A stretch of DNA of 64,000 bases from a virus (lineage: Duplodnaviria > Caudoviricetes). The number at the start of each line of letters is the position of its first letter. Positions within the stretch are counted from its first letter, which is position 1. Location of the stretch: positions 1 through 64,000 of IMG/VR virus record IMGVR_UViG_2974796119_000001; one strand, 5' to 3'. Below are positions 1 to 18,590 of the stretch, piece by piece. The notes below the pieces were generated by a model, which ran no database searches, had not been told where the DNA came from, and saw nothing but the letters and a program-made list of their open reading frames with translations. The position numbers and the translations under genes are program-made.

Positions 1-600
1 AGTATGTGCGCGTGGGGAGATTTTTCGTTTTGGCAATTGGTTTTCATTTATACACCCCCCTATTGATTTCGTTGCGAATGATTCATATTTTTGAACTTTT
101 ACCCCTCTGACAATGCTGTGTATGAAAATTAACCTCACTATGTATCGTATATGTTATTGTAGTGACGTTCTTTCGCTTGGTTTCTTTCGGTTGAGGTTAT
201 TATACTATCTATTGATACACTTACTTGTATTGTTAGCTCGTTCCTACTGCATCTTCTTTGCTTGGGTGGTACACTTATATAGTTGAATTGATTTTGTTCG
301 CTTAGAAGCGAGGATTTGAGCTAAACACCATTTAAAATAAAAGAATTGCAGTATTATCGTCATTTGCTGTTCTATTGTATTTGTTTGGTTATTGGTTTGC
401 GTTGTATTGTTGTCTTGTTATGTTGTCTTGGTACGGTGCAGGAAGTTTAGTTTGCTTAGTGTTTGCGGTGTGTTGTCGTTTTGGTGTGTGTTTGGTTTGT
501 TGGTTTTGGTTGGTCTAGTAGATTTATGTATCATAAGGAATGTTTATTCTTGTTATGTAGTACTATCGAATTTCTTTATAATGTAACATTTTTTTGTTTT
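1..600. other. Non-coding G/T-skewed region, candidate genome terminus/packaging region
   Basis: Composition is opposite to the A-rich coding strand elsewhere; no credible ORF; lies directly upstream of the first promoter. Confidence 0.45.
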
Positions 601-627
601 GTTACCTTTTTATCTATTTAAGTTACG

Positions 628-635
628 TATATTTG
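628..635 (+). promoter_or_regulatory. Bacteroidota sigma-A -7 box for the first early transcript
   Basis: TATATTTG matches TAnnTTTG, upstream of the first genes. Confidence 0.7.
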
Positions 636-636
636 T

Positions 637-710
637 AGAGTAGTTAGGAATTAGCATTGTTTATCTCTTAATTACTTAGTTCTTTGAAATCTTAAAGTAT
701 TAACTACTCT
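637..710 (+). promoter_or_regulatory. Structured 5' leader of the early transcript
   Basis: AGAGTAGTTA (637-646) pairs perfectly with TAACTACTCT (701-710), enclosing internal hairpins. Confidence 0.5.
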
Positions 711-786
711 CTAATATCGTGACTGCATAAGGTGTATTTATTAGAAGATTAGCCGACGGAACTGGCAAAGAGTTTATACAAAATAA

Positions 787-843
787 TAAGTGTAACGGTT
801 GCAGCCTTTAGGGGCTTGTTGAGGTTCGATTCCTTTGCACTTA
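787..843 (+). ncRNA. Mini-tRNA-like element 1 (acceptor stem + T-arm + one hairpin, no D/anticodon pair)
   Basis: TAAGTGTA/TGCACTTA stem; GAGG-TTCGATT-CCTT T-arm stacked on it; AGCCT-TTAG-GGGCT middle hairpin. Confidence 0.7.
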
Positions 844-886
844 CAAAAAACATAAATTAATAAAAACAACCTTAAATCAAATCATT

Positions 887-1018
887 ATGAAAGCAATTTT
901 TAACACAGTGAACAAATTAACATTAGAAAACAAATTAGCAATTTTGGCAATATCTTTTATTGTTTTTTTAGCAGTCAGCGTTTTAGTTGATGCAATAAAA
1001 AACGGAACACCTTTGTAG
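887..1018 (+). CDS. 43-aa single-pass membrane peptide (first gene)
   Basis: MKAIFNTVNKLTLENKLAILAISFIVFLAVSVLVDAIKNGTPL; preceded by the ACAACCTT leader motif; below ORF-track cutoff. Confidence 0.7.
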   Translation: MKAIFNTVNKLTLENKLAILAISFIVFLAVSVLVDAIKNGTPL

Positions 1019-1049
1019 TAAAGTATTAATAAATTTTAAACCTAAAAAA

Positions 1050-1265
1050 ATGAGATTAAATAGCAGTTTAGACATCAACGCAGTTACTTTATTAGATAAA
1101 GTAAAAATACTACTGGAACAGCCTTATAAATTAGTCTTAGTGCAACGCAACGAGCTAGAGCGTTTAAGGGTATCAGTTAAACGCTCAGAACAATCAGCCT
1201 ATATCAATAGTTTATATAAACATTACATAATAGATAAGAAAAATAAAACTTATTTATGTAACTGA
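1050..1265 (+). CDS. hypothetical early protein
   Basis: 71-aa ORF, A-rich initiation region. Confidence 0.6.
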   Translation: MRLNSSLDINAVTLLDKVKILLEQPYKLVLVQRNELERLRVSVKRSEQSAYINSLYKHYIIDKKNKTYLCN

Positions 1266-1283
1266 TTTTTTTAATCAAATTCA

Positions 1284-1334
1284 TTGCCTTGAAATATTCA
1301 ATGTTATTTATTCGGTTCGTTACCGACAAGGCAA
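1284..1334 (+). ncRNA. Mini-tRNA-like element 2
   Basis: TTGCCTTG/CAAGGCAA 8-bp stem; TCGG-TTCGTTA-CCGA T-arm; AAATA..TATTT middle hairpin. Confidence 0.7.
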
Positions 1335-1362
1335 CTAAAAAACAACCTTAAATCAATTTATT

Positions 1363-1812
1363 ATGAAAGAATATAAAACAGACACAAAGCAATTTACTTT
1401 AAAGAAAACAAAGTCTAATTTTAAACAATGCAAAATTAAAAGTTCGGCAGATGGTCGAGATTTTGCAGCTAAATTCTACCACGAAGACATTGCAGTTTTC
1501 GAAAGTATGTTCTGCATCTTCTTAAATAACGCAAACAATACTACTGGTTGGTGTAAAATATCGCAAGGCGGTTTATCAGGTACAGTAGTCGACCCTATTT
1601 TAATAGGCAAATATGCAATTGAATCACTTGCAAAATCAGTTATTTTGGTACATAACCACCCAAGCGGAACACTCAAGCCAAGTCAATCAGATTTGCAAAT
1701 TACTACAAAGATTAAAAAAACCCTTGATATTTTCGATTGTAAAGTTTTAGACCATTTAATTATGGTTGAAGGTGGTAATTACTACAGCTTTGCAGACGAA
1801 GGAATTTTGTAG
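1363..1812 (+). CDS. radC: RadC-like JAB domain protein
   Basis: ILVHNHPSGTLKPSQSD...VLDHLI JAB motif. Confidence 0.9.
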   Translation: MKEYKTDTKQFTLKKTKSNFKQCKIKSSADGRDFAAKFYHEDIAVFESMFCIFLNNANNTTGWCKISQGGLSGTVVDPILIGKYAIESLAKSVILVHNHPSGTLKPSQSDLQITTKIKKTLDIFDCKVLDHLIMVEGGNYYSFADEGIL

Positions 1813-1814
1813 TT

Positions 1815-2003
1815 ATGGAGTTACACAAATACTTATTTTTAAGAACTACAGACGGTATCTATATTTTTGATAGTAAAGACCAAGACATTTTTACAGAAAA
1901 TGACTCTATTGCCGTTTATTCTGAGCAAAACAAAACATTAAAATTTGCTAACAATTTAACTGCTGCAATCTATAAAGAACAGCTACTAACAATATTAAAC
2001 TAA
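1815..2003 (+). CDS. hypothetical protein
   Basis: ORF in operon packing. Confidence 0.6.
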   Translation: MELHKYLFLRTTDGIYIFDSKDQDIFTENDSIAVYSEQNKTLKFANNLTAAIYKEQLLTILN

Positions 2004-2025
2004 CAACCTTTTAAAACTTATCATT

Positions 2026-2304
2026 ATGGAAACAAATAACTTAATCGATTTACTAAAATATCAAGAATTTTTTAACACCAATTTAGAAGAGCTAACAACA
2101 CTAAATGAAGATGATGTTAATTTTATTAATCAAACTCATTTTGGCGATTTAATTGTCGAGGAATCTAATATTGATGGTGAAAGATACAATTTGTATCGTT
2201 CTTTAGATGAAAACGTTGCACAAGGCGAAGCACTAATACAAATAGAGCATAGCGGAAAAAACAATAATTACAGTTATGAAACTGTTTTAAACTTTTATCT
2301 TTAA
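2026..2304 (+). CDS. hypothetical protein
   Basis: ORF with ACAACCTT leader motif. Confidence 0.7.
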   Translation: METNNLIDLLKYQEFFNTNLEELTTLNEDDVNFINQTHFGDLIVEESNIDGERYNLYRSLDENVAQGEALIQIEHSGKNNNYSYETVLNFYL

Positions 2305-2316
2305 AAAATATATACC

Positions 2317-2559
2317 ATGGCACAAACACAATACGCACAAGATTTAGCGAAGCAATACGAATTAGGAAACACCAAAGAAGATTTTTATCAATATATAGTT
2401 AATTCTATGGAAAACGGACAAAGACAACAAGTTCGGAAGTTATTCGGGGAAATGGACAACCACGACAAACAAGAATTTTTAACTACTTGGCTAGACCCTC
2501 GTAATAGAGGAATACATAAAAGTACTTTAAACACTTGTATAATTGAACTTTTAGATTAA
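2317..2559 (+). CDS. hypothetical protein
   Basis: ORF in operon packing. Confidence 0.7.
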   Translation: MAQTQYAQDLAKQYELGNTKEDFYQYIVNSMENGQRQQVRKLFGEMDNHDKQEFLTTWLDPRNRGIHKSTLNTCIIELLD

Positions 2560-2563
2560 AAAA

Positions 2564-2641
2564 ACTCGTTCGGGCGAGTATAAAAAGAGATTAAGCCCGA
2601 AGCGTCTCGCCAGTCTTAGGGGTAATTTTGGCGGGGGTTCT
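2564..2641 (+). ncRNA. Pistol self-cleaving ribozyme (predicted cut G2637/U2638)
   Basis: P1 ACUCG/CGAGU; loop UUCGGG pseudoknots with CCCGAA; AUAAA linker; P2 AGA/UCU; UUAAG...GCG core; P3 UCUCGCCA/UGGCGGGG; GU cleavage dinucleotide. Confidence 0.92.
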
Positions 2642-2661
2642 AAACTAAAAAAAATAAAATT

Positions 2662-2958
2662 ATGAATGTTTTAAACACTTGGCAAAGCGATAGCACAAAA
2701 AAAGTATTTTTTAATGTTTCAAATCCTATTTACACAAATGGAGAGTATAATATTTACAAGGAACACAGTAAATGTTTTCTGCATACATATAAAAATATAG
2801 CTATTAACCAGTTATGCGCACCAAACAAAGAGCATATAAAAAACTTAATAAATAATACTAGACCGCTTACAAATACAAAATACACGCCTAAAACACTTAT
2901 TTATGATAGGTCAAAAGAAGCAATAAAAAAAGGTTTAACTATTTTAAAAAACTATTAA
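2662..2958 (+). CDS. hypothetical protein
   Basis: ORF directly downstream of the ribozyme. Confidence 0.7.
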   Translation: MNVLNTWQSDSTKKVFFNVSNPIYTNGEYNIYKEHSKCFLHTYKNIAINQLCAPNKEHIKNLINNTRPLTNTKYTPKTLIYDRSKEAIKKGLTILKNY

Positions 2959-2961
2959 GCA

Positions 2962-3258
2962 ATGAAGAAACTGAATACAGCGGATTTTTTAAAAGAAGTA
3001 AACACGGATTTTAATTTTAAAAGTTTCGGTCCTAATGATTTTATAAAAAAAGAATTTATAAAAATTGAAGATTTAACACCAAATCAAGAACATATCGAAC
3101 TAAACACATTAACCGAAAAAATAAAAGGTAAAAATCTGACTGTTCCGCACGTTCTATTGTATAATGATAAAAAAATACTAATAGACGGACACCATACGGT
3201 TATAGCTAAGTTGTTAAAAGGACAATCTAAAATTTTGTGTAAAATAACAATCAGATAA
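2962..3258 (+). CDS. ParB/Sulfiredoxin-like domain protein
   Basis: LTPNQ...VLL...LIDGHHT motif. Confidence 0.7.
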   Translation: MKKLNTADFLKEVNTDFNFKSFGPNDFIKKEFIKIEDLTPNQEHIELNTLTEKIKGKNLTVPHVLLYNDKKILIDGHHTVIAKLLKGQSKILCKITIR

Positions 3259-3283
3259 TAAAATATTGCTAAGGGGTTAGTAA

Positions 3284-3329
3284 TGGCGTGAAGTATTTAG
3301 TACTTATTCGGAGCGATACCGACACGCTA
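3284..3329 (+). ncRNA. Mini-tRNA-like element 3
   Basis: TGGCGTG/CACGCTA stem; AAGTA-TTTAG-TACTT hairpin; TCGG-AGCGATA-CCGA T-arm; same layout as element 2. Confidence 0.7.
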
Positions 3330-3354
3330 ACAAAAAAACTTTAAAAATTACAGA

Positions 3355-3648
3355 ATGAAAACAGGAACTAAATTTTATATTGAATTAATAGTTGATAGCT
3401 CAACCGTAAAAAATACAGATATAAAAACAGCTTTAAGCATTAAAATAAGTAGTTTAAAAACAGCTTTAAATGGTGAGGGTATAGAAATATACGAGTATAT
3501 AAAAGAAAGAGTTTTGTTTTTTGGCAAAGATGAACAAATTAGGCAAAAAATAAAACTAATTTTATCTAAACCATTAACAAAAAACAGCATTTACAAAGTT
3601 ATTAATTCTGTAGAGGCTCAACCGTTAAATTTTAAAGAATTAAACTAA
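3355..3648 (+). CDS. hypothetical protein
   Basis: ORF track. Confidence 0.65.
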   Translation: MKTGTKFYIELIVDSSTVKNTDIKTALSIKISSLKTALNGEGIEIYEYIKERVLFFGKDEQIRQKIKLILSKPLTKNSIYKVINSVEAQPLNFKELN

Positions 3649-3665
3649 TAAAAACTTGTAATACT

Positions 3666-4037
3666 ATGAACTGTTTATTTGAACACTACACAGAACAACC
3701 AAAAAAACTAAAGAAAATAACCTCTAAATGGGGTGATAAACTAGAAAGTAAAGGATGTAAGTACAAAAAATGCGCGAAGTTCTTAGAGGCAATAAATAAA
3801 ATCGGCTACACATTTGAGTTCGGCTTAGATGCACAACCTTTTCTTTTGCGTCTAATGAACGAGGACGAAAGACACGAGTACATAAACGAATACGGTAATA
3901 ATTTCGATTTGTATCTATTGGAAGATACCGTTGTAAAAGTAGGTAAAAACCAATACAAGAACCAAGAAACACAGCACAAAAAAACCTTTACTAAAAAGGA
4001 ATTAAAACAGTTTTTTAAAAAAGAATATCAAAATTAA
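3666..4037 (+). CDS. hypothetical protein
   Basis: ORF track. Confidence 0.7.
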   Translation: MNCLFEHYTEQPKKLKKITSKWGDKLESKGCKYKKCAKFLEAINKIGYTFEFGLDAQPFLLRLMNEDERHEYINEYGNNFDLYLLEDTVVKVGKNQYKNQETQHKKTFTKKELKQFFKKEYQN

Positions 4038-4042
4038 AAGCC

Positions 4043-4210
4043 ATGGAACTAATTAAGCTAACAGCAGAAAAGCACAACGGCAGTACTTTTTTCAAAGATG
4101 CCAACGGAAAATTAAAAGGAGTAATTCCACCCGAACAAAAACAACCTAATAGAAATACTAAATTTTACACTCTTAATTGCTGCTTATTCGCCATTAATTG
4201 GATTAATTAA
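4043..4210 (+). CDS. small hypothetical protein (55 aa)
   Basis: Fills the gap in-operon; translated by hand. Confidence 0.55.
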   Translation: MELIKLTAEKHNGSTFFKDANGKLKGVIPPEQKQPNRNTKFYTLNCCLFAINWIN

Positions 4211-4221
4211 TATATTTTTTC

Positions 4222-4496
4222 ATGATTAATTTACAAGAAGTCAGAAACATAAAAAAAAAAACATCGTTTTAATTAATGGAGTAAACCACCTTTGTACAAT
4301 GGTTCAAGGTTATGCAAACAACCCAAACAAAAATTTTAGATTTACAAATATGAACCTATCTAAAAAAATAAGACATTCGGTATATAATGAATATTACTAC
4401 AAATGCAAAGACTTGCAAAAAGACATTGAAGAAAAAAAAATAACTTTTTTAGTAATTGGAGCAAATCAAAAAAATTTACAATTAGCTCTATTTTAA
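4222..4496 (+). pseudogene. Frameshifted ORF across an A11 tract (4251-4261)
   Basis: MINLQEVRNIKKK ends in the A-run; one extra A would fuse it to the 4299-4496 frame (about 91 aa). Confidence 0.5.
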
Positions 4497-4533
4497 AACA
4501 AACTAAAAAACACCCTAAAAAATCACAAATTAA

Positions 4534-4720
4534 GTCCCCTCGCATTAACCATTTTTTTAGGTTGGTTAGTTTTGTGGGGGGACAATATTAATTCAATACT
4601 CTTTTTTTATGCTTACCTCATCAATGCGGGTAGCATAAAATAGTATTAACAAAAAATAAACTAATTCCTGGAGGATTATAAAAAAGCAACTCATTTTTAA
4701 ACTGCTTTTTTCTCCTTGGG
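4534..4720 (+). promoter_or_regulatory. Three tandem long imperfect hairpins (RNase III-like sites or structured RNA)
   Basis: GTCCCC..GGGGAC (4534-4583); AATACT..TTTTATGC..GCATAAAA..AGTATT (4595-4647); GGAG..AAAAAGCA..TGCTTTTT..CTCC (4667-4720). Confidence 0.6.
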
Positions 4721-4739
4721 CAAAACACCTTTTTAAATC

Positions 4740-4979
4740 ATGGATAAACTAATTAAAGAGCTTAGAGAAGCTAAAAAATCAAAAATATCTAGTTGGATTG
4801 ACTCTGTTAGTATCAGAATAGAAAAAATGGAATTGTTTTTTAAAACAGCTTCTAAAGTGGGTTTAATTAAAGATGGTTTTTATATAAGTGGAATACCTAA
4901 AGGAAGTGAAGAGTATATAAACGATTTTTATAAATTAGAGAATGAACTAGAATACCCAAAACCTCAAAAAATTAACTAA
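4740..4979 (+). CDS. hypothetical protein
   Basis: ORF track. Confidence 0.65.
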   Translation: MDKLIKELREAKKSKISSWIDSVSIRIEKMELFFKTASKVGLIKDGFYISGIPKGSEEYINDFYKLENELEYPKPQKIN

Positions 4980-5000
4980 AAAATAAACTCTTTTTAAATT

Positions 5001-5324
5001 ATGAATACTTTACAAACTCAATTAGAAACAGTAGCAAAATTCGCAGGATTTACCCACGAAAAAAACTTAGATTGGCATGATAACGAAATGATGATGAAAC
5101 AGAGAATTTATGACGCAGAAGGCGGTAACTGTTTTGATAAGCTTTTATTTTCGGAGTCTTGGGATTGGATTATTCCAGTAGTTAAACTATGTGAAGAAGT
5201 ACAAGATTCTAAAAGCGGTAATTTGCTAGGAGACATTACACACGCTTTACTTGATTTTGATATTGAAAAAACATTTGAAGCAGTAGTTAAATTCATTGAA
5301 TGGTATAACCAACAAAAAAAGTAA
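5001..5324 (+). CDS. hypothetical protein
   Basis: ORF track. Confidence 0.7.
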   Translation: MNTLQTQLETVAKFAGFTHEKNLDWHDNEMMMKQRIYDAEGGNCFDKLLFSESWDWIIPVVKLCEEVQDSKSGNLLGDITHALLDFDIEKTFEAVVKFIEWYNQQKK

Positions 5325-5326
5325 TT

Positions 5327-5770
5327 ATGAAAAAAGAACAAAAAAATAACTGCAAAGCAGTACAAGTAAATCACCCTCTAGACCCTATAGAATGGAATTG
5401 TGACTGTAAAGAAGCTGAAAATGGAGAACCATGTTCTTTTAGTTGGATTCAAACAGACGGAAGTATAAATACCTTGCAATACGGAAGGAAAATGAGTTTT
5501 TTTTCTTGGGAATACTCAGAAATAGGCGGGCAATATACTGACGAAAAAGAAGCTGAAAAAAACAAACATAATTGGAGTTCTAAAATTATTGATTTACATG
5601 ATTACTCAAAAGAAAAAGTAGAAAATATAATTTCGTCTTGGGGTTACTCTATAATAAACTACGATTTAGAAAACAGAAAAATAAAAATAAAACAAGAAGC
5701 CGAAATATTCAATATAAATGATTCTATACAATTAATTTGTGAATGTATTTCTGAATACGAACACTATTAA
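5327..5770 (+). CDS. hypothetical protein
   Basis: ORF track. Confidence 0.7.
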   Translation: MKKEQKNNCKAVQVNHPLDPIEWNCDCKEAENGEPCSFSWIQTDGSINTLQYGRKMSFFSWEYSEIGGQYTDEKEAEKNKHNWSSKIIDLHDYSKEKVENIISSWGYSIINYDLENRKIKIKQEAEIFNINDSIQLICECISEYEHY

Positions 5771-5784
5771 AAAACAAACCAACC

Positions 5785-5961
5785 ATGAACCAACTATTTT
5801 TAACACTAAGAGCAAAAAAAATTATGTTTTCTTTTGAACGCATAGAAGGAAAAGTAACCAAAATTACAAACATAGAATTAACTAAAGACGGACGAACTCA
5901 TTTAGCTAACGGCAGAATAGTATCTAAAAACTTATACAACGAACTTTTAAAAATAAACTAA
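5785..5961 (+). CDS. small hypothetical protein (58 aa)
   Basis: Fills the gap; translated by hand. Confidence 0.55.
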   Translation: MNQLFLTLRAKKIMFSFERIEGKVTKITNIELTKDGRTHLANGRIVSKNLYNELLKIN

Positions 5962-5963
5962 TT

Positions 5964-6191
5964 ATGGCAGATTTTTACAGCATAAACGGATATTGGAAAG
6001 ACGACAAAACAGAATTTAAAGAACTTATAGTTTCAGAAATGGACGGCTGCTTTGAAGGAATAGAACCTTACAGCGATGATGATATTTTCTTTTACGGTTT
6101 AAGTGAATCTAATTTATTAGAAGCAATCGAGCTAAAAGAAGAAACAGCACATGATTTTGTTATAACATCATTCACTAAAATAATTCAATAA
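5964..6191 (+). CDS. hypothetical acidic protein
   Basis: ORF track. Confidence 0.65.
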   Translation: MADFYSINGYWKDDKTEFKELIVSEMDGCFEGIEPYSDDDIFFYGLSESNLLEAIELKEETAHDFVITSFTKIIQ

Positions 6192-6433
6192 TGAAAACAA
6201 CTAAAAGAATATTCAGATTCATTGGAAAGTTGCTTTTATGGATTTTTTACCTAATAATAACAGGTAAAGAAAGACAAATGTATCAACATGCAAAGTATGC
6301 AAAAAGAGCTGTTAAAAGTGTTAAAAATGACCTTTTCGGAACCACCTATATTATGGGTGAATACTTAGGCAATAAAGAACCTGAAAGAAACTTTTTAACA
6401 TGGAAAGAATTTAGAAAACAACATAAATTTTAA
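6191..6433 (+). CDS. hypothetical protein with hydrophobic N-terminal segment
   Basis: Translational coupling; FIGKLLLWIFYLII segment. Confidence 0.6.
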   Translation: MKTTKRIFRFIGKLLLWIFYLIITGKERQMYQHAKYAKRAVKSVKNDLFGTTYIMGEYLGNKEPERNFLTWKEFRKQHKF

Positions 6434-6437
6434 AATT

Positions 6438-6581
6438 ATGATAAAAGTATATTTTGAGTCAAGAAACCATGCGGAATTAGTAGCCACTTTTGAAACCGAT
6501 GAATTATATAATCTTTGCTTGCCTATATTAGAAGCAGCAGCAGGAGAACAAGGAATGATAGTAACCGAAAAAATAGAATAA
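6438..6581 (+). CDS. small hypothetical protein (47 aa)
   Basis: Fills the gap; translated by hand. Confidence 0.55.
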   Translation: MIKVYFESRNHAELVATFETDELYNLCLPILEAAAGEQGMIVTEKIE

Positions 6582-6584
6582 TAA

Positions 6585-6896
6585 ATGGATAACTCATACT
6601 ACATAATAACAAGCGAAGCAAATAGAACAGTTTTTTGTTCAGATAATTTTAGTAAAATAGAAGCTTTTATCAAGGAAAATCAAGATGCAAGGGTAAGAAC
6701 TGTAAATTATACTGGGAAGCCTAAAATAATGAGCAAAGAGCTTTTTTTAATAAAGTTTTTAGCTTTTACCCAAAACAAAGAAAAGTTTTTTATGCTTACT
6801 AGAATTATGATTGAAGCAAGAACAAAATTTGCTGCTTTTATGAGTATGAATCAACTATTAGAAGAGTGGAAAGAATTTAAACGTGAATTTTTATAA
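6585..6896 (+). CDS. hypothetical protein
   Basis: ORF track. Confidence 0.65.
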   Translation: MDNSYYIITSEANRTVFCSDNFSKIEAFIKENQDARVRTVNYTGKPKIMSKELFLIKFLAFTQNKEKFFMLTRIMIEARTKFAAFMSMNQLLEEWKEFKREFL

Positions 6897-6906
6897 ACCA
6901 TAAACC

Positions 6907-7065
6907 ATGTCCCCGGAAAACTTTTTAAAAACAGATGAAGCAAAAAAATGCAAAAATGTAGCTTTTACAAGTGATGAAAAAAAAGTAATTCATACATGGA
7001 TGAAGCAATACGCAAAACACATAATTAAAGAAGACCAAAAAGCAAAAAGACAATGTTCGCAATAA
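6907..7065 (+). CDS. small hypothetical protein (52 aa)
   Basis: Fills the gap; translated by hand. Confidence 0.5.
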   Translation: MSPENFLKTDEAKKCKNVAFTSDEKKVIHTWMKQYAKHIIKEDQKAKRQCSQ

Positions 7066-7310
7066 AAACAGAATCAGGAACCTTTAAAACATTCAACGTA
7101 AAAAAGATATACGAAATCTTAATGAAAACCCAAGACAAAGAAATTAAACACTTCTTTGATTTTGAATTATACACACAATCTGAGTTTTTTAAGACATATT
7201 TAAGAATATCAAAAAACTACGAAAATTACCTAAATTTAGAGAAAAAGTTTAACCCGCACCCAACATTAAAAGAATATGCAGACAAATTCAAGGTCAAAAA
7301 AAAGATTTAG
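7053..7310 (+). CDS. hypothetical protein
   Basis: ORF track. Confidence 0.6.
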   Translation: MFAIKTESGTFKTFNVKKIYEILMKTQDKEIKHFFDFELYTQSEFFKTYLRISKNYENYLNLEKKFNPHPTLKEYADKFKVKKKI

Positions 7311-7761
7311 TGAGGTAATTCAGGAAATGTTCAAAACATTTGGCGAAAATAATATCACTTTAGATGAAATTTCAAAATCTACGAAAATAGATAAAGAGTT
7401 TTTATTGATGCTTTTAAATAATGAAGGTCAGATGGTGGAGAATATTTCAAGACTGATCCAATTCGCTAATTTAAGATTAACACTTGTGAAATATAAAATG
7501 AAATTTCACACTACATACCACGTTTCAAAAGATGTAATAATGTTTTGCAGAATAGTAGAACCTAAATGTAATATATCTTATGATAAAATAACTGGTGAGT
7601 TTTTTAATCTTAACTTCAAAAGAAAAAGAATAGAAAAAAAACTATCTACTATTGAAAAACAACAAGTTTTAGCCGACTTTAAATCGTTTAAAGAAACCCA
7701 TATAGATAAACTCTATGATGAAAAATTTATGCAAAGGATAAATCAATTGAATAGCGTGTAG
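7276..7761 (+). CDS. hypothetical protein, possible N-terminal HTH
   Basis: ITLDEISKSTKID...ISRLIQFANLRL resembles an XRE-type HTH; true start may be internal. Confidence 0.5.
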   Translation: MQTNSRSKKRFSEVIQEMFKTFGENNITLDEISKSTKIDKEFLLMLLNNEGQMVENISRLIQFANLRLTLVKYKMKFHTTYHVSKDVIMFCRIVEPKCNISYDKITGEFFNLNFKRKRIEKKLSTIEKQQVLADFKSFKETHIDKLYDEKFMQRINQLNSV

Positions 7762-7822
7762 TTTTTTACACAAAAACATTACATTTACAACCTCAAACAA
7801 CAATCTTAAATCAAAACAAATT

Positions 7823-8638
7823 ATGAAAATAGTAGGAAAACAAGAAGCAACAAAACAAATTGATAAAATATTCGGGATATTCACTAACAGCTTATCTAAG
7901 ATAAGACCTCATTTCGTATTAACTGGACCAAGTGGAAGCGGTAAAAGTGTAACCATAAAAGCTATGGCTAAAAAACATAAAGTAGGTTATTTTGAAATAA
8001 ACGCTGCTCAATTAACTAAAGAAGGCACTAGCGGTAACAGTTTAAGCAAAGCTTTAACACCTTTATTAAACCACGGAGGGAAACCAACAGTTTGTTTTGT
8101 TGATGAATTTGATAAATTATTTATTTCTGGTAATTCAAATTCAGAATTAGCCCATGAAAGCACTAACGGAGTTCAAAACGAGTTCCTGAAAGTATTAGAA
8201 AGCGATACAGCAACAGTTTTTGGAGATTACGGTAAATATGTAGAGGCATCCGCTTCCAACATCTTATTTATCTTTGCAGGAGCCTTTAATGGGGAAGAGG
8301 ATATTGATATTGACAGATTACGTGACTTAGGTATTAAAACTGAATTTCTAGGTCGTGTAGGATTAGCTTACAACCTTACAAAACTAACTTTAGATGATTT
8401 ATTTGAGATTTTAGACCACTCAGAATTGTTAGAAACTTACTTAGAACTATTTACTGATTCTGATAAAGAAAAAACAGTATTAGAAATAAAAGCCCACCTA
8501 CAAAAAATATATCCAAACAATACTTTGGGAGCTAGAATTATAACATCATTAATTAATCAGTATTTTATTAATGGAGGGTTAACAGAAAAAGAAGTTAAGC
8601 AAATCACATTTCAAAATAAAATGAAGTTAAAAGATTAA
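7823..8638 (+). CDS. ClpX-like AAA+ ATPase (no Zn-binding domain, no IGF loop)
   Basis: Walker A GPSGSGKS, Walker B FVDEFDK, VQNEFLK, ILFIFAGAF, TEFLGRV parallel ClpX motifs. Confidence 0.8.
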   Translation: MKIVGKQEATKQIDKIFGIFTNSLSKIRPHFVLTGPSGSGKSVTIKAMAKKHKVGYFEINAAQLTKEGTSGNSLSKALTPLLNHGGKPTVCFVDEFDKLFISGNSNSELAHESTNGVQNEFLKVLESDTATVFGDYGKYVEASASNILFIFAGAFNGEEDIDIDRLRDLGIKTEFLGRVGLAYNLTKLTLDDLFEILDHSELLETYLELFTDSDKEKTVLEIKAHLQKIYPNNTLGARIITSLINQYFINGGLTEKEVKQITFQNKMKLKD

Positions 8639-8658
8639 ACCATGAAAACAATAGAAGT

Positions 8659-8907
8659 ATGCAGGACAGAAACAAAAAACTAAAAGACAGAGTAATTAAT
8701 TGCAGAGAAAAATTAAGCAATTTAGAGATTAAAAAACCTCTTGTTAAATTCGCTAGGAAGTATCCAAGATATGTAAAAGGATCAACTTCTAAAGAAAAAG
8801 AAAAGTCTAAAACAAGGCTTAGAAATCTTTTTTACTGTAAAGCTTTCGATGAAGATTTTACAAAACATTTAGAAGTATTCGTAGAAATAACTAAAACAAA
8901 TAACTAA
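8659..8907 (+). CDS. hypothetical basic protein
   Basis: ORF track. Confidence 0.6.
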   Translation: MQDRNKKLKDRVINCREKLSNLEIKKPLVKFARKYPRYVKGSTSKEKEKSKTRLRNLFYCKAFDEDFTKHLEVFVEITKTNN

Positions 8908-9626
8908 TGGAGTCACCTGAAATTTCAAAACTTTTTAAAAAATATAATCTTACTAAAGACGACTATTTTAAACACAAACATTATCAAATAATCACTAGAA
9001 GCGGGATGGATAAAATCCAAGCTATAGAGAAAATATTTATTGAATATGAAGTTATTGCTGCTGTTCCTAAATATTGTGCCGTAAAAGCTAAAGCCAGTAA
9101 AGATAATGCTAAGATAGAAACTTTCGGAAGTGCTGTTTATGGTGGTAAAGAATGGATTACTTTCGATAAACCCACTCAACAAGGTAAAACAGGTAAATGG
9201 ATAGAAAACGGAAATACAAATACATGGTACGTTTTAGAAGTTGCTGAAAAAAGAGCTATGAGTAGAGCTGTTTTAAAATTAACTGGTTTTTATCAACTTG
9301 GTGTTTTTGGAGAAGATGAAAGTGAAGATTTTAAGAAGGAAACAACACCACCTGCAAAAACAACACCAACACAACCAGTAAAAGAACCAGTAAAACAAAC
9401 ACAACCTTTAGCACAGCAAACAACACCTACTCCTAAAGCTATAAAACCTTTACCAAGATTAGTAGAAAAATCAGAGTCATGGGAAAAGATGGTTGTTTTA
9501 ATAAACACAGGAATATTAACCTCTATAACTCAAGTAGAAGGTAAATACTCATTAGAGCCAGTAGCAAAAGCTAAAATTATTAAGATTATTAAAGACTATA
9601 AACCTAAAAAAGAAGCTAAAAACTAG
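8907..9626 (+). CDS. Putative single-strand annealing protein (Rad52/Sak-like)
   Basis: VAEKRAMSRAVLK...EDESEDF core followed by a P/T/Q-rich tail. Confidence 0.55.
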   Translation: MESPEISKLFKKYNLTKDDYFKHKHYQIITRSGMDKIQAIEKIFIEYEVIAAVPKYCAVKAKASKDNAKIETFGSAVYGGKEWITFDKPTQQGKTGKWIENGNTNTWYVLEVAEKRAMSRAVLKLTGFYQLGVFGEDESEDFKKETTPPAKTTPTQPVKEPVKQTQPLAQQTTPTPKAIKPLPRLVEKSESWEKMVVLINTGILTSITQVEGKYSLEPVAKAKIIKIIKDYKPKKEAKN

Positions 9627-9631
9627 AAATT

Positions 9632-9856
9632 ATGAGCATATCTAAAAACATATTATTAGACGAATTAATAGAGCAACCACACCACGAAAAAGTAGAAGAT
9701 GTTATTTTTTGGGCATTGGAAATGTATGCGGAAAACAACAAAGGAACTAATGGTGCTATGGTTGCTTATGCAATTACCCAAAGAATAGAAGATGATGAAA
9801 AAGAAGGGAAATCCAAACTAATGAATCCAGAGTTAATTAAATCTTTAGGATTATAG
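9632..9856 (+). CDS. hypothetical protein
   Basis: ORF track. Confidence 0.6.
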   Translation: MSISKNILLDELIEQPHHEKVEDVIFWALEMYAENNKGTNGAMVAYAITQRIEDDEKEGKSKLMNPELIKSLGL

Positions 9857-9858
9857 TT

Positions 9859-10020
9859 ATGAGCATTGAAAAACAAGTAAAGGAAAAACTAAAAGAACAA
9901 CACGGTTACGATTTTGATTCAGAATTTTGGACTGATGAAAATATTGTAATGCTTCAAGAAATTGTAGAAGCTACCGAAGAAGTAATTCTCTTTGATTTAA
10001 ATAGAATTGACAAACATTAA
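9859..10020 (+). CDS. small acidic hypothetical protein (53 aa)
   Basis: Fills the gap; translated by hand. Confidence 0.55.
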   Translation: MSIEKQVKEKLKEQHGYDFDSEFWTDENIVMLQEIVEATEEVILFDLNRIDKH

Positions 10021-10030
10021 ATCTTAAATC

Positions 10031-11059
10031 ATGATTAAAAAAAATAGAGCAGAGATAAGCGGATTAGTAATACATAAAGTTGCTAATAAATTTAACAGCG
10101 GTAGCAATGCCTTATCAGAAAAAACAGTACGTTTTGATGAAGAAAGCTACGAACTTGTTTTACCATTTTTATTAAATCCATTCACAAAAGAAGTTCTTAG
10201 CTACAGATTTGACAACGAACTATCAAAACTAAATAAAATTACCGATGCTATTTTCAAAGATGAAGATTCATTTATGGAAGGTTCTAAAAACATTGTAAAT
10301 CATTTATACGAACAATCAAATTCAGCAACCATAAAAAACGGTGATGTTTTAGTAGTGTTTTTTGATGGAATCGAATATAAAGATGTTTTAGTTGAAGCTA
10401 TTGGTATTTTTAAAATAGAAACAAAAACCAACTTCCTGCAAACATACTTAGAAGATGGTAATTTTGATGTTGTAACACAATCTGGAATATCAATAAAGAA
10501 ATTTGATAAAGGTTGTTTAATTCTTAATACGTCAGACGATAACGGTAGAGTCGTTTTAAGCATAGATAATAATAATTATGACGCTCAGTATTGGAATAAG
10601 AATTTCTTAGATGTAAAGTATTCAGATGATAAGAATTTACATACACACATCTATTTAGATATGTGTAAACAATTCGCAGACGATGTAATTATAGCTAAAA
10701 AGGAAAAAGGAGAGTTTTTATCAGGTGTATTGGATCACTTCAAAGAGAACGAAACAGTAGTACATGAAGAGTTAAAAGAAGAACTTTTTGAAACAAAAGC
10801 AAACCAAGACCTTTTTGCTGAATACAAAAACACTTATGAATCTTTTAACGATGCTATTATTAGAAACTCAGTTGAGGTTTCAGACCCAGTAGTTAAGAAA
10901 GAAAAATCGAAGCTTAAAACAGAAATTAAACTAGACACCAACATTAAAATATCATTAGATGTTGATGCTCCAGATGCAGCCAAAGAATATTTAGAGCTTG
11001 GGTATGACGAAGAAAAAAAGATGAAGTATTACAAGGTGTATTTTAACGCTGAAAAGTAA
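10031..11059 (+). CDS. Nucleoid-associated protein, NdpA/YejK (37-kDa) family, flavobacterial type
   Basis: IHKVANK N-terminus, AIGIFK.E, DKGCLILN, YW..FL, C-terminal LDTNI.I.LD...GYDEEK.MKYYKVYFN. Confidence 0.8.
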   Translation: MIKKNRAEISGLVIHKVANKFNSGSNALSEKTVRFDEESYELVLPFLLNPFTKEVLSYRFDNELSKLNKITDAIFKDEDSFMEGSKNIVNHLYEQSNSATIKNGDVLVVFFDGIEYKDVLVEAIGIFKIETKTNFLQTYLEDGNFDVVTQSGISIKKFDKGCLILNTSDDNGRVVLSIDNNNYDAQYWNKNFLDVKYSDDKNLHTHIYLDMCKQFADDVIIAKKEKGEFLSGVLDHFKENETVVHEELKEELFETKANQDLFAEYKNTYESFNDAIIRNSVEVSDPVVKKEKSKLKTEIKLDTNIKISLDVDAPDAAKEYLELGYDEEKKMKYYKVYFNAEK

Positions 11060-11476
11060 ATGAAACTAACACAATACCAACAAAGTGTTTATTCAGGATT
11101 ACAATGCCCCTACTGCAAATCAGAAACAAAAGTAGTATCAGAAAAATACATTTACGGTAGGAGTTATAAAGATAGGTCAATGATTTGCTGTGTTAACTTT
11201 CCTACTTGCAGATCCTATGTTGGGACTCATGAAGAAGACGGAAGCTCATTAGGAAGGTTAGCAAATAAAACACTAAGACAGTTTAAAAACAGAGCGCATG
11301 AACATTTCGATAAGATTTGGATGGAAGACTACCACACTAGAAGCGAAACATACGAGCTTTTAAGTGAATATTTAGAAATTCCAGTTGACTATACGCATAT
11401 TGGGTTCTTCAACGAAGAAACCTGCAAAAAAGTAATTGACTGGAGTATTAAAACATATAAAGACCTAAAAAACTAA
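11060..11476 (+). CDS. DUF3268-type zinc-finger protein
   Basis: CPYC...C..C.SYVGTH..LG.LA..LR..AH..FD.IW...HIG.F. Confidence 0.8.
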   Translation: MKLTQYQQSVYSGLQCPYCKSETKVVSEKYIYGRSYKDRSMICCVNFPTCRSYVGTHEEDGSSLGRLANKTLRQFKNRAHEHFDKIWMEDYHTRSETYELLSEYLEIPVDYTHIGFFNEETCKKVIDWSIKTYKDLKN

Positions 11477-11688
11477 TGAACCTAAAGCAATTAATTGAGT
11501 TTTTTGATAGTCAGGAGCTAACAGAAGAGCCGATAACATTAAATCAAGCTACTATTATATGTAATCAAAAAAACTTCGTTAAAAGCCATATAAACTACCT
11601 TAAAGCAAATACTGGAAATAAAGCTTTTGAACCTTATTATTCAAGATTAATTGAACTTTATAAAATATTAACCAATGGGAGCAAATAA
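11476..11688 (+). CDS. hypothetical protein
   Basis: Translationally coupled ORF. Confidence 0.65.
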   Translation: MNLKQLIEFFDSQELTEEPITLNQATIICNQKNFVKSHINYLKANTGNKAFEPYYSRLIELYKILTNGSK

Positions 11689-11986
11689 AGAATTATCTCA
11701 AATGTTCAGACAAATGGGAGAAGATTACTTAACTGATATAGACATGAGCGGAAGCCTATATCTTCAATACAAAGAACTTGACAAACCGAAATTAGAAGTT
11801 ACAGCAACTAATTTCGGAAAATTCTACAAAGCAAAGCTTAACGGAGTTTCAATTAACAGAGAAAAACTATACAATATTTTAGGTATAGAATCTACAGCGG
11901 GTATGAGATTAGAATATCATTTATTTGAATTTGAAAAACACGATCAGAAATACATCATTGATTTTTCAGAAATCAGTGTGAGTTAA
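11675..11986 (+). CDS. hypothetical protein
   Basis: ORF track. Confidence 0.6.
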   Translation: MGANKELSQMFRQMGEDYLTDIDMSGSLYLQYKELDKPKLEVTATNFGKFYKAKLNGVSINREKLYNILGIESTAGMRLEYHLFEFEKHDQKYIIDFSEISVS

Positions 11987-12012
11987 GAACCTCTTTAAAA
12001 CAACCTTATCAA

Positions 12013-13467
12013 ATGCTAGACCTTTTTACAGAAACAGATATAGACAAGCTCATAAACCATATTAAAGCAAACTACAATCCAAACAAACCATTAATGTTTG
12101 TAGTAGATTTATTTTGTGGCGCAGGAGGAATGACAGAAGGGTATCAAAAAGTAGATAACACTTTTGTAGTAGCTTGTGTTAACCATGATGAATATGCTAT
12201 AAAATCACACCATGCAAATCACCCTTGTTGCATACATTACACAGAGGATATTACGGATTGGAACGTTATATGGAAAATAGAAAGTCTAGTATTTCAATTA
12301 AGAGAAAGATTTAGTAACTGCTTTTTAATACTTCATGCAAGTTTAGAGTGTACACACCTAAGTAAAGCTAAAGGTGGTTTGTCAAGGGATGGAGACAGCA
12401 GAACATTAGCTTTTCATTTAGAAAAATACTTAGAAATAATACCTGATTACATTACAATTGAAAACGTAGAAGAAATTCTTACAAATGGACCTCTAGACGA
12501 AGATGGTATGATAATACCAGAACTTAAAGGATTAGATTATAAACTTTGGTTAGAAATAATTCAGGATTATGGTTATGATTATGACTACAGATTATTAGAT
12601 TCAGCAGATTTTGGTGAATACACATCAAGAAAAAGATATTACGGAATTTTTGCTAAAGAAGGATTACCAGTTTCATTCCCTAAACAAACACACGTAACAA
12701 AAAAGAAACAACATTTATTTCCAAACCTAAAACCGCATAAAGCAGTAAAAGAAGTTTTAGATTTAGATAATTGCGGAATATCTGTTTTCGGAAAAAACAA
12801 AAGAGGTAAAAATTATGTTGATGCAACTATTACAAGAACTCATGCCGGAGTAAAAAAAACACTAAAAGAAAAACAAACTGAATTTCTAAGTGCTTATTAT
12901 GGAGCTTCACAAAATGGGCAAGGTATAACAGGAATGGATGAACCATGCAACACCTTAACGACTAAAGATAGATTTGCATTACATCATATTCAATACGCTT
13001 ATAGTAACGCTTATTATACTTCTATAGAAAAACCCGCAGGAACTATACTTACTAATCCAAAACATGAATTAGTAACGACAAAATGGCTATACGATACACA
13101 ATACGACAGAGTATGTTGTTCGGTTGAAAAACCTTCACCTGTAATTATAGCAAGACAAGATAAAACACCTTTAAGTATTGGTTTTGCTAAAAACTTTAGT
13201 ATTGTAGATCACTCAGTTGAACTACCAACAGATACCAACGCAAGAAAAAATTTAAAATCTTTTATGAGGTCAAACCAAATAAAAGATATTACTATTAGAC
13301 CTTTATTAGAAAAAGAACTTTTACGAGTTCAAGGATTTCCAGAAGATTACATATTACTTGGAGGTGTTACCAGAGCTAAAAAATATATTGGTAATGCAGT
13401 TGTTCCTGGAATGGCAGAAGTAATAGGTAATGAAATTTACAAATCACATTCAGAATACTTAAATTAA
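12013..13467 (+). CDS. Orphan DNA (cytosine-5) methyltransferase
   Basis: Motif I DLFCGAGG, catalytic SLECT, ENV, YTSRKRYY, RVQGFP, IGNAV. Confidence 0.92.
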   Translation: MLDLFTETDIDKLINHIKANYNPNKPLMFVVDLFCGAGGMTEGYQKVDNTFVVACVNHDEYAIKSHHANHPCCIHYTEDITDWNVIWKIESLVFQLRERFSNCFLILHASLECTHLSKAKGGLSRDGDSRTLAFHLEKYLEIIPDYITIENVEEILTNGPLDEDGMIIPELKGLDYKLWLEIIQDYGYDYDYRLLDSADFGEYTSRKRYYGIFAKEGLPVSFPKQTHVTKKKQHLFPNLKPHKAVKEVLDLDNCGISVFGKNKRGKNYVDATITRTHAGVKKTLKEKQTEFLSAYYGASQNGQGITGMDEPCNTLTTKDRFALHHIQYAYSNAYYTSIEKPAGTILTNPKHELVTTKWLYDTQYDRVCCSVEKPSPVIIARQDKTPLSIGFAKNFSIVDHSVELPTDTNARKNLKSFMRSNQIKDITIRPLLEKELLRVQGFPEDYILLGGVTRAKKYIGNAVVPGMAEVIGNEIYKSHSEYLN

Positions 13468-13474
13468 ATAAATT

Positions 13475-13972
13475 ATGAAAAAATCACTTTACAACATTAA
13501 CGAAGACCAACAAAAATTAGTTGAAGAATTAATTAAATCTGACGGTGAATTAACACCTGAAATGGAAGAACAATTAGTTTTAAATGAAAAGAACCGTAAC
13601 CAAAAAGCAGTTGCTTACATGGAGGTTATATCTTCTCAAAAACTTAAAGTTTCTGGTGTAGATTCTGAAATAAAAAGACTACAAGCTTTAAAGAAAAGAG
13701 AAGGTAAAATAATTGAAAAACTAGAAGCTAATTTACTTAGTTGTGTTAAAGCTTTCGGAAACTTTGAAGTTGGAACTTTAAAATTCGGAACTAGAAAAAG
13801 TCAAGTTGTAGAAATTGACGTTGAAAAGAAAGATAAAATACCTAGTGAGTTTAAAACCTCTACAACTACAGTAACAATCAGTAAAACAGCTATTAAAGAT
13901 TACCTTAAAATTGAAGGTAATAAAATTGAGGGCTGCAAATTAGTAACAAACTTAAATCTAAAAATTAACTAG
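13475..13972 (+). CDS. Siphovirus Gp157-like protein
   Basis: SLYNI..., SEIKRLQALKK coiled coil, GTRKS..V, KTAIKDYLK...IEGC. Confidence 0.8.
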   Translation: MKKSLYNINEDQQKLVEELIKSDGELTPEMEEQLVLNEKNRNQKAVAYMEVISSQKLKVSGVDSEIKRLQALKKREGKIIEKLEANLLSCVKAFGNFEVGTLKFGTRKSQVVEIDVEKKDKIPSEFKTSTTTVTISKTAIKDYLKIEGNKIEGCKLVTNLNLKIN

Positions 13973-13979
13973 AAAAATT

Positions 13980-15278
13980 ATGAAAATTAAATCAATCTCA
14001 GTAAAAAACTTCAAAGCTTTAAGCGAGCAAGAAATGACTTTTGATGGAGCTTCTGCAATAATTACCGCAGGAAACAACAAAGGAAAAACAAGTATTTTAA
14101 ACGGATTAGTAAATAGATTCCGTGGCGAAAAACCTGAATTTATTGTAAAGAACGGAGAAGAAAAAGGTGAAAATATTATGGAACTTACTGATGGTTCAAT
14201 AATTAAATGGAACTTCACCACTAAAACAGAAAAATTCCAGTTTACTACACCTGAAGAATTAGTTATTAAAACAGGAGTTTTAAAAGCTATTGGGAAAAGA
14301 TATTTTGGTGAGAAATTTGATATTGATAAATTTATCAGCTCAAGCAAAAATGAGCAGTTAAAACAAGTTCAAAAATTAGTAGGTATTGATTTAAGTCAAT
14401 TAGATTCTGAGTATAAAAAAATATACGAACAAAGAACTGATGCTAATAAAGAAGTAAAAAGATTACTCGCTTTAAATACTCAAAAACCTGAAGAAGTTTC
14501 AGCACCAGATATTCAGGCTTTAAAAGATGAAAAAACTGAATTAGAAACAAAAAATTTAGCTTTAAAATCTAAATGGAAAATAGATAATGAAGCACATCAA
14601 AAAGAAGCTAATGATTTCAACGCAAATGTACAATCTGTAATAGATGCTGAAAAAGAGTATTCTGACGCTATGACTGAGTTAGAAAAATACAAAGGAAAAG
14701 CAACTGGAGCTTTTATAGATTTTAAAGGACTACAAGATGCTTTTGTTGATCTTCCAGATATTAAAGAAAAGAAAGTTATTACAACTTTATCCGAACCTAA
14801 ATATCATGAGTTTTTAGATATTGACAAGAAAATTGAAGATGCTTATGAAGATAAATCTAAGTTCGACAACTACGAAAAAGATTTAAAAGCTTACAATGAC
14901 TGGGTTAAATCTGGAAAAGACCAAAGAGAAACTGTAGATAACCTTAACAAAAAGCTAGATGAAATTCAAGCTGAAAGAGTAGAGGTAATTCAAAACTCTA
15001 ATTTACCAGAAGATTTTGAAATGAACGAAGAAGGATTATTTTACAAAGGATTACCTTTAGACCATAATCAACTTTCAAGTTCTGCTAAATACATTTGCGC
15101 TTTAAAACTAGGTGTTTTATTCCTTGGTAAAATCAGGACAATGCATTTTGACTGCTCTTTCTTAGATAAAAATTCACTTCAAGAAGTTCAAGACTGGGCT
15201 AAAACACAAGACTTGCAACTTTTAATTGAGCGTCCTGATTTTGAAGCAAGAGATATTCAGTACAACATTTTAAACTAA
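13980..15278 (+). CDS. SMC/Rad50-like ATPase with coiled coil
   Basis: KSISVKNFK, Walker A AGNNKGKTS, QLSSS signature, Walker B-like HFD. Confidence 0.8.
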   Translation: MKIKSISVKNFKALSEQEMTFDGASAIITAGNNKGKTSILNGLVNRFRGEKPEFIVKNGEEKGENIMELTDGSIIKWNFTTKTEKFQFTTPEELVIKTGVLKAIGKRYFGEKFDIDKFISSSKNEQLKQVQKLVGIDLSQLDSEYKKIYEQRTDANKEVKRLLALNTQKPEEVSAPDIQALKDEKTELETKNLALKSKWKIDNEAHQKEANDFNANVQSVIDAEKEYSDAMTELEKYKGKATGAFIDFKGLQDAFVDLPDIKEKKVITTLSEPKYHEFLDIDKKIEDAYEDKSKFDNYEKDLKAYNDWVKSGKDQRETVDNLNKKLDEIQAERVEVIQNSNLPEDFEMNEEGLFYKGLPLDHNQLSSSAKYICALKLGVLFLGKIRTMHFDCSFLDKNSLQEVQDWAKTQDLQLLIERPDFEARDIQYNILN

Positions 15279-15292
15279 AAATAAACTAATAG

Positions 15293-15326
15293 AATGTCCA
15301 GTTTTTTAACTAATAAACTGGACATT
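15293..15326. repeat. Perfect 12-bp inverted repeat (processing site or terminator)
   Basis: AATGTCCAGTTT / AAACTGGACATT. Confidence 0.7.
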
Positions 15327-15343
15327 TAAAACAACCTTAAATT

Positions 15344-16304: not shown

Positions 16305-16308
16305 AATT

Positions 16309-16734: not shown

Positions 16735-16776
16735 AAAAAAGTTATTAACACGTTCTTTTTTAACACAATAAAGCAT

Positions 16777-16784
16777 TATATTTG
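16777..16784 (+). promoter_or_regulatory. Sigma-A -7 box for the replication operon
   Basis: TATATTTG. Confidence 0.7.
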
Positions 16785-16792
16785 CAATGTTA

Positions 16793-16896: not shown

Positions 16897-16903
16897 AACT
16901 AAC

Positions 16904-17671: not shown

Positions 17672-17672
17672 A

Positions 17673-18569: not shown

Positions 18570-18590
18570 ACGTAAAACAATAAAATAATC

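Follow-up and report, generated by a model that had tools for sequence, protein, structure and literature searches.

The first 4.7 kb of the DNA analysed here (the window, bases 1–64000 of the complete 78,833-bp IMG/VR phage record IMGVR_UViG_2974796119_000001) appear to open a long operon of small genes, free of terminators, whose larger intercistronic gaps hold folded RNA elements of several kinds: a pistol self-cleaving ribozyme, two copies of a 48-nt three-way-junction RNA that we call the R2 motif, a tRNA look-alike and a group of hairpins. Every element that we accept ends 19–43 nt upstream of the next ATG, as an earlier note on this DNA had said in placing its elements just upstream of start codons, and the pistols and the R2 motif recur in related phages. 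Comparison with these phages gives good support to punctuation of the operon by several kinds of RNA module. As to what the modules do, we favour cis-acting processing of the operon transcript, with RNase P and RNase Z handling the tRNA mimics, an explanation to which we give about an even chance of being correct. The earlier note had likewise proposed mixed processing of one transcript; the variety of modules that it postulated is borne out by the pistols and R2 motifs of relatives and by a tRNA-type trailer; its leader stem is not, and its hairpins are unconserved.

The anchor of the argument is the pistol ribozyme. Judged by its covariance model, the identity of this element, already proposed in the earlier note, is certain: it scores 65.6 bits against an RF02679 gathering score of 34.5, and the match covers model positions 1–68 of 68, with a 6-bp pseudoknot (UUCGGG/CCCGAA in the model alignment), a P3 of 8 bp and a P2 of only 3 bp. 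The cleavage dinucleotide, G2637/U2638, lies 24 nt upstream of the ATG at 2662. After self-cleavage there, the upstream piece would end in the ribozyme, with a 2',3'-cyclic phosphate, and the downstream mRNA would begin with a 24-nt leader carrying a 5'-OH. The arrangement resembles RiboJ, an engineered ribozyme insulator, in that a self-cleaving RNA would strip away the upstream context and leave a short, defined leader before the start codon, but here it is natural, arrayed and mixed with non-ribozyme modules.

Pistols in this position are not peculiar to one genome. Relatives were collected as 15 IMG/VR records through an alignment of 31 TerL homologues, which was used because peptide patterns drawn from the single TerL sequence gave no matches, and pistols above the gathering score are present in six of these 15 records: five in G010, where they occupy five of the operon's first six gaps, three each in G003 and G009, and one each in G008, G013 and G015. 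The median pairwise identity of the 15 pistols is 57%, and compensatory changes are seen in the pseudoknot and in P3 across the 14 pistols of the relatives; as they are diverged and have covarying pseudoknots, they appear to be independently maintained rather than recent copies. Twelve of the 14 end 15–25 nt upstream of an ATG, and in three phages (this one, G008 and G013) a pistol and the R2 motif are found in one operon. The contig L172 is informative in another way. Its gap before the homologue of the open reading frame (ORF) at 3666–4037 (L172 2490–2563) retains the P3, the GGGGGUU and the leader of the pistol of the phage described here and has lost P1 and the pseudoknot, so that the remnant is reduced to a hairpin, and this argues that modules turn over within a conserved slot. 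Homology of the first of our own hairpins to pistol P3 was also considered, but the alignment is weak and we make no such claim. As a separate observation, RT-17 RNAs (RF03020) scoring just above gathering lie a few kb past the pistol operons of G013 (L053 12329–12412) and G015 (L054 8596–8679).

Phage genes flanked by ribozymes are in themselves not new and have been known since 2011. Multiple hammerheads flank single prophage or phage genes, a polycistronic RNA carrying them is cleaved in vitro, and ribozymes were proposed to divide long phage transcripts into gene-sized pieces (Perreault et al., 2011, PMC3088659). Bacterial self-cleaving ribozymes cluster together and with phage genes, to a purpose that is still open (PMC6765202; PMC4604425); for pistol, twister and hatchet such neighbourhoods come from Weinberg et al. 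(2015), as summarised in the same two papers. The operon described here is like these clusters in placing self-cleaving RNAs between small, varied genes of one long transcript. It differs in having a pistol as its ribozyme, within a clade of marine, low-GC phages with up to five per operon in relatives, and in that some of the slots hold tRNA look-alikes or hairpins instead.

Two further gaps hold the R2 motif, which, on the evidence of covariation, is a real RNA family absent from Rfam. A 7-bp outer stem leads directly into a variable hairpin with an A-A/U-U base, followed by AU and by a second stem of 4 bp (UYGG/CCRA), whose 7-nt loop (AGCRAUA) abuts the 3' strand of the outer stem; the junction has almost no unpaired nucleotides. 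The minimum-energy folds of 1284–1334 and 3283–3330 are the proposed Y shape (z = -3.5 and -2.4, respectively). A covariance model seeded with these two copies and one pattern match, and then rebuilt, gives 12 distinct members, the 10 further loci being spread over three other phage records that are complete or nearly so (G001, G008 and G013), six distinct metagenome sequences, and L172, a 3.7-kb contig of a closer relative that was reached via a protein homologue rather than an RNA pattern. The L172 member is a near-orthologue of copy 1 in which the outer stem is identical and the inner hairpin and loop are different. Across 10 distinct sequences (alignment A7), 94.7% of cells are paired, compared with 74% for shuffled partners and 40–48% when the partners are slid, and both sides have changed in 11 of the 17 base pairs. 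One pair that the search pattern had left free is always C-G or U-A in members, whereas rejected coding matches include C-A and U-G. The outermost columns of the model do not truly pair; the first behaves like position -1, mostly U, and the last like a 'discriminator', a purine.

The placement of the members is as consistent as their structure. All are intergenic and in the sense orientation; they lie 4–36 nt past a stop codon (10 members with a callable flanking ORF), with an ATG 20–39 nt further on (nine members with a nearby ATG-starting ORF) or, read by eye, 19 nt downstream in L115. Members L122 and L146 have flanks with no unambiguous ORF and stand outside these counts. The genes downstream of the members are mutually unrelated. 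No Rfam family matched the motif at E <= 10 in bases 1–6000, at E <= 1 in L172 or at the gathering score in 14 further loci, and in the same searches it was unmatched by the hammerhead, twister, twister-sister, hatchet, HDV-like and hairpin ribozyme models. Most matches to the 19-nt core pattern were discarded as coding sequence for a ...LFGAIP... peptide; they score 27–36 bits and often have C-A or U-G at the covarying pair. A look-alike in G011 (L058, minus strand, ~11931–11982), intercistronic and with an outer stem UCCUUUG, a GCGC stem, a loop AGCAAGA and a trailer A-CAAA, had a model score that was not significant and was not counted.

The company that the R2 motif keeps raises the question of whether it is a ribozyme in its own right, a new and very small self-cleaving class interchangeable with pistols for cutting polycistronic messages. 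Its slot and its distance from the ATG are those of the pistols with which it shares an operon in three phages, it is small, its loop and junction are conserved beyond the needs of pairing (UUAU, AGCRAUA, the AA/UU base and frequent ...UAG loops), and neighbourhoods of this sort have historically yielded new ribozyme classes (PMC6765202). We nevertheless think it unlikely, as none of the Rfam ribozyme families matches even at E <= 10, the junction is nearly devoid of unpaired nucleotides from which an active site could be built, many ribozyme-associated motifs tested elsewhere were uncleaved (PMC6765202), and the tRNA-like 3' trailer described below favours processing by an enzyme. A pseudoknot between the loop of the motif's first hairpin (...UAG) and the 3' flank (CUA) was discarded as a general feature; it fits some members only and, by inspection, is without covariation.

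The remaining small element, at 787, is a D-armless tRNA look-alike. It has an acceptor stem of 7–8 bp, seven unpaired bases where a D arm would be, an anticodon-like arm of 5 bp with one C-C mismatch and the loop UUUAGGG (U33, anticodon UAG, purine at 37), and a T arm, GAGG-UUCGAUU-CCUU, with the canonical loop UUCGAUU. In its metazoan-mitochondrial mode at default settings, ARAGORN calls a D-armless tRNA-Leu(tag) at 788–844, its sole call in 6 kb, and a descriptor scan for a T arm with an adjoining 7-bp acceptor stem finds in the whole genome only this element and the true tRNAs. Its stability places it within the top 25 of the genome's 60-nt windows. It is unrecognised by bacterial-mode ARAGORN in the window and by Rfam RF00005 (E <= 10, bases 1–6000), and it is a singleton with no counterpart in the relatives compared. 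The earlier note had spoken of three mini-tRNAs. All three are real folds, a tRNA look-alike at 787 and a covariation-supported family at 1284 and 3283, but they are not one family; the idea of a 'family of three' was dropped when the covariance models R1 and R2 both missed the 787 element.

What the three elements do have in common is the sequence that follows them. In all 11 true tRNAs of the phage, the discriminator is followed by C at +1 and then mostly by (A/U)-A (CAAAA, CUAAA, CUAUA), and A-CAAAA follows the elements at 787 and 3283 and A-CUAAA the one at 1284; by chance, a given position would match [AG]C[AT]A with a frequency of 2.6%. Among R2 members, R-C-(A/U)-A comes directly after the stem in 10 of 13 and after one extra base in the other three, and it is kept in the members of other phages, including phages that have no tRNA genes; in G013, two of the three tRNAs have the same trailer. 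The R2 fold itself might be read as a tRNA-like minihelix, with 7 + 4 bp stacked and no intervening nucleotide beneath a 7-nt loop in which C56, R57 and A58 are kept in most copies, 54/55 being A-G and one copy having U at 58. What RNase P and RNase Z require of a tRNA is, as is well established in biochemistry, its acceptor/T half. With an acceptor/T-like stack and a tRNA-type trailer, the mini elements are thus likely to be recognised by the host's tRNA-processing enzymes, and this combination is the best argument that they are handles for such enzymes, although it falls short of proof. With regard to the tRNAs themselves, all 11 (73061–74733) encode C74 but not CCA, and two of them, 73061–73128 and 73137–73203, are undetected by standard ARAGORN. 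Elsewhere in the genome, a 148-nt intergenic gap at 68779–68930 contains a large tRNA-like fold, closed by an outer stem of 9 bp and bearing the GGTTCGA-type T-arm motif twice, on which ARAGORN is silent.

Taken this way, the larger gaps of the operon would hold interchangeable RNA modules that cut or insulate the transcript just before the next cistron's leader, which is A-rich and without a Shine-Dalgarno sequence, and the benefit would be a separate stability and translation for each cistron. The cleavage events, the enzymes and the benefit are what we infer from the elements and their placement. At 787, 1284 and 3283, where an acceptor stem would be stacked on a T-arm-like hairpin ahead of an N73-C-(A/U)-A trailer, the 5' cut would be made by RNase P and the 3' cut by RNase Z or an equivalent enzyme, as for the t-elements of plant mitochondria. 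These are tRNA-like folds by mRNA ends that are thought, or have been shown, to direct cuts by RNase P and RNase Z (Forner et al., 2007, PMC1920247). The mini elements would share with t-elements, and with the tRNA punctuation of animal mitochondria, a non-canonical fold of acceptor stem and T arm near mRNA ends, and the 787 element also contains the t-element search motif GGTTCRANYCC. They differ in belonging to a phage operon rather than an organelle, and the R2 motif in particular is much smaller, with no D or anticodon arm and a non-canonical loop. With multi-ribozyme phage genes (PMC3088659) and t-elements (PMC1920247) on record, the earlier note's remark that it knew of no description of such a mixed array was too strong.

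Several points weigh against the explanation that we favour. The R2 loop (AGCRAUA, and UUCGUUA once) departs from the T-loop consensus at 54–55 and fits a GNRA tetraloop plus a bulge equally well; the stack of acceptor and T stem is 11 bp, not 12; and all three mini elements are rejected by the Rfam tRNA model and by standard ARAGORN. The C-W-A-A could derive in part from the A/C-rich standard leader rather than from a tRNA trailer. Neither the 787 element nor any of the hairpins is conserved, each being a singleton; nine of the 15 related records are without a pistol and most are without the R2 motif, and the P3-only gap of L172 may mean that a plain hairpin suffices or that the slot tolerates decay.

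A different use of the same tRNA-like features would be in trans, the mini-tRNAs being released to serve as regulators or as decoys for host toxins or defence nucleases that attack the acceptor end or elbow. Only the acceptor/T half has been kept, together with a tRNA-like trailer, and the neighbouring genes, among them that for the RadC-like JAB protein at 1363–1812, have the look of cargo of an early or anti-defence kind; in phi14:2, a related marine phage, early non-coding RNAs that are stable accumulate, and one of them is tmRNA-like. But the outer stems vary freely between copies, which would not be expected of the mimic of one tRNA, and the strict placement before start codons is a better fit to a role in cis, so that we regard release and action in trans as very unlikely. 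The tmRNA-like gene of Cellulophaga phage phi14:2 (NC_021806, 4031–4500) deserves a mention of its own: its ARAGORN tag peptide is GSSVQKLAMVA-stop, and it scores 46 bits with RF00023 against a cut-off of 47 (E = 7e-16). Drobysheva et al. reported the intergenic region in which it lies as a 'long non-coding RNA' that is abundant, stable and early and has no known function.

The last kind of module, the hairpins, all lie within the gap 4497–4739, and of the three long hairpins in the earlier note the first two are strong and the third is weak. No other 60-nt window of the 78.8-kb genome is as stable as that of hairpin 1 (-26.4 kcal/mol, z = -6.25 against shuffles); the genome mean is -5.8 +/- 3.4. 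Intrinsic termination does not suit the hairpins of 4534–4720, none of which has the U-tract. The early transcript of T7 is processed at RNase III hairpins (R1.1 and others), and the present hairpins are like those sites in being long, irregular and without U-tracts between cistrons; they differ in that the stems, ~18 and 19–21 bp with internal loops in hairpins 1 and 2, are unconserved and confined to 4534–4720, and they are putative sites only. To our knowledge, recognition by RNase III is unpredictable from sequence, and cutting of these hairpins by that enzyme is pure inference. Those of 4534–4647 might be RNase III sites or might instead stabilise 3' ends. The enzymes named in the earlier note, as well as its end chemistry, timing and evasion of defence, are likewise hypothetical.

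Hairpins without conserved sequence also lend themselves to another account of all the non-pistol elements, that they act uncut, as insulators that separate each A-rich initiation region from the sequence upstream, blocks to 3' exonucleases or binding sites for host or phage proteins. A stable fold with a constant unstructured leader is the common denominator of the gaps, and L172 keeps, at the same position, a pistol that has decayed to a bare hairpin. However, the conserved R2 loop and the tRNA-type trailer would be left unexplained, the unrelated genes downstream make a gene-specific operator unlikely, and the pistols point to selection for cutting in the very same slot. We see this as a real but rather improbable alternative to processing in cis.

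Apparently new here are the 48-nt motif with its covariation, the tRNA-type trailer common to the mini elements and the tRNAs, and the dense occurrence of pistols in a marine clade. The natural role of the pistol, as of most small bacterial ribozymes, is unsettled, and a clade with up to five diverged pistols, each one short leader before successive start codons, offers a clean system in which to approach the idea of polycistronic processing. In this clade, minimal tRNA mimics or hairpins also take the place of pistols in that slot. If the R2 motif is cut by RNase P and RNase Z, the tRNA punctuation of organelles would extend to bacteriophages, and the motif would be about the smallest natural substrate of this machinery; if it cuts itself, it would be a new ribozyme class. 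Either way, it would be a compact, portable separator of cistrons for hosts that do not use Shine-Dalgarno sequences.

Table 1. Features at the head of the operon (positions in the window)
Feature	Position	Strand	Basis and remarks
-7 promoter box TATATTTG, Bacteroidota-type	628..635	+	Exact octamer match; putative promoter
'Leader stem', 9-bp inverted repeat (638-646 with 701-709)	638..709	+	Fold no better than shuffles; probably not functional
D-armless tRNA look-alike	787..844	+	Fold, ARAGORN mitochondrial mode, T-arm descriptor scan
R2 motif copy 1	1284..1334	+	Covariance model, fold; loop UUCGUUA
Pistol self-cleaving ribozyme	2564..2642	+	Rfam RF02679 covariance model; predicted cut G2637/U2638
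Short hairpin directly 5' of R2 motif copy 2	3265..3284	+	Minimum-energy fold of 3262-3340
R2 motif copy 2	3283..3330	+	Covariance model, fold; loop AGCGAUA
Hairpin 1, ~18 bp, two G-U pairs, no U-tract	4534..4583	+	Fold
Hairpin 2, interrupted stem of ~19-21 bp	4595..4647	+	Fold, z = -5.83
Hairpin 3, weak, A/U-rich	4668..4720	+	Fold, z = -2.31

The operon probably starts at the host-type promoter box at 628–635, to judge from its sequence, with transcription expected to begin near 640. Eight of the nine exact + strand copies of the octamer TATATTTG in the genome are intergenic, and a similar TAT(A/G)TATTTGTAG heads the equivalent operons of relatives G003 and G009; no second such promoter is found in the intergenic gaps from this box to at least 16.7 kb. 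Terminator-like sites, defined as a G+C-rich stem followed by a U-tract, are absent from the + strand within 1–20000, in keeping with the earlier note's statement that the gaps hold no terminator, and textbook terminators with U-tracts are present elsewhere in the genome, for example near 26079 and 32915. The note's further statement that almost every large gap is folded holds for four of its five kinds of element. The exception among the elements is its 5' leader stem at 637–710, which is no better than shuffled sequence (z = -1.15; 24 of 200 shuffles are as good) and is unconserved; its 5' arm (638–646) abuts the promoter box, so the stem is probably only partly transcribed, and it is probably not a functional element. 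Among the gaps, 4211–4298 is unstructured (z = +0.74), the only large early gap of which this can be said; it has 11 consecutive A and what may be a 16-codon ORF from 4222. Structural conservation in related phages, named in the earlier note as a check, was found for the pistols and the R2 motif and not for the other elements, blastn-short searches of the leader, the 787 element, the hairpins and the left arm against all relatives compared having given no match.

The phage has ~30% G+C, genes nearly all on the + strand, terminase and portal genes, and a tRNA cluster at 73.0–74.7 kb. Its terminase relatives, at 47–73% identity, are frequent in marine metagenomes, with one from a Flavobacteriaceae metagenome-assembled genome, and the clade, which is marine and low in GC, is likely to infect Flavobacteriia. 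A protein with a crAss-type muzzle domain is the sole support for an affinity to crAss-like phages, and both 'crAss-like' and 'early' are unproven as labels for this phage. We accordingly dropped the idea of a crAss-like phage whose early genes are made by a virion RNA polymerase: no DFDxD motif is present in any genome ORF of at least 400 aa, and the 2482-aa ORF in the slot of the crAss-like enzyme (40108–47556) has neither DFDxD nor a PDB match, its Pfam search being uninformative apart from a sub-threshold GNAT match. This has a bearing on a possible role of the inverted repeats as DNA, be it as origins, as sites of recombination or as hairpin promoters from which a virion RNA polymerase would initiate. 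Single-stranded or hairpin templates are indeed used by the enzymes of this type in N4 and in crAss-like phages, but with no DFDxD polymerase detectable in the genome, G-U pairs in the stems that would be A-C mismatches on the other strand, R2 members that are sense-oriented without exception and a pistol that is RNA by definition, a role at the level of DNA is extremely improbable.

The ORF at 1363–1812, directly after R2 motif copy 1, encodes the RadC-like JAB protein (PF04002, E = 7e-33), and RadC homologues were abandoned as a route to relatives because they are too generic; the other small operon genes have no family match. A search of the phage collection with DNA 1–6000, and a protein search with the ORF at 38573–40108, gave no match. 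Bases 1–886 contain no plausible gene. An exact direct repeat of 322 bp is found at the termini of the 78,833-bp record; one copy is included in the left arm (1–630), which is ORF-free and G/T-rich, and the other is at 78512–78833. The left arm and the leftward genes of the right end together define a divergent non-coding region of ~1.2 kb.

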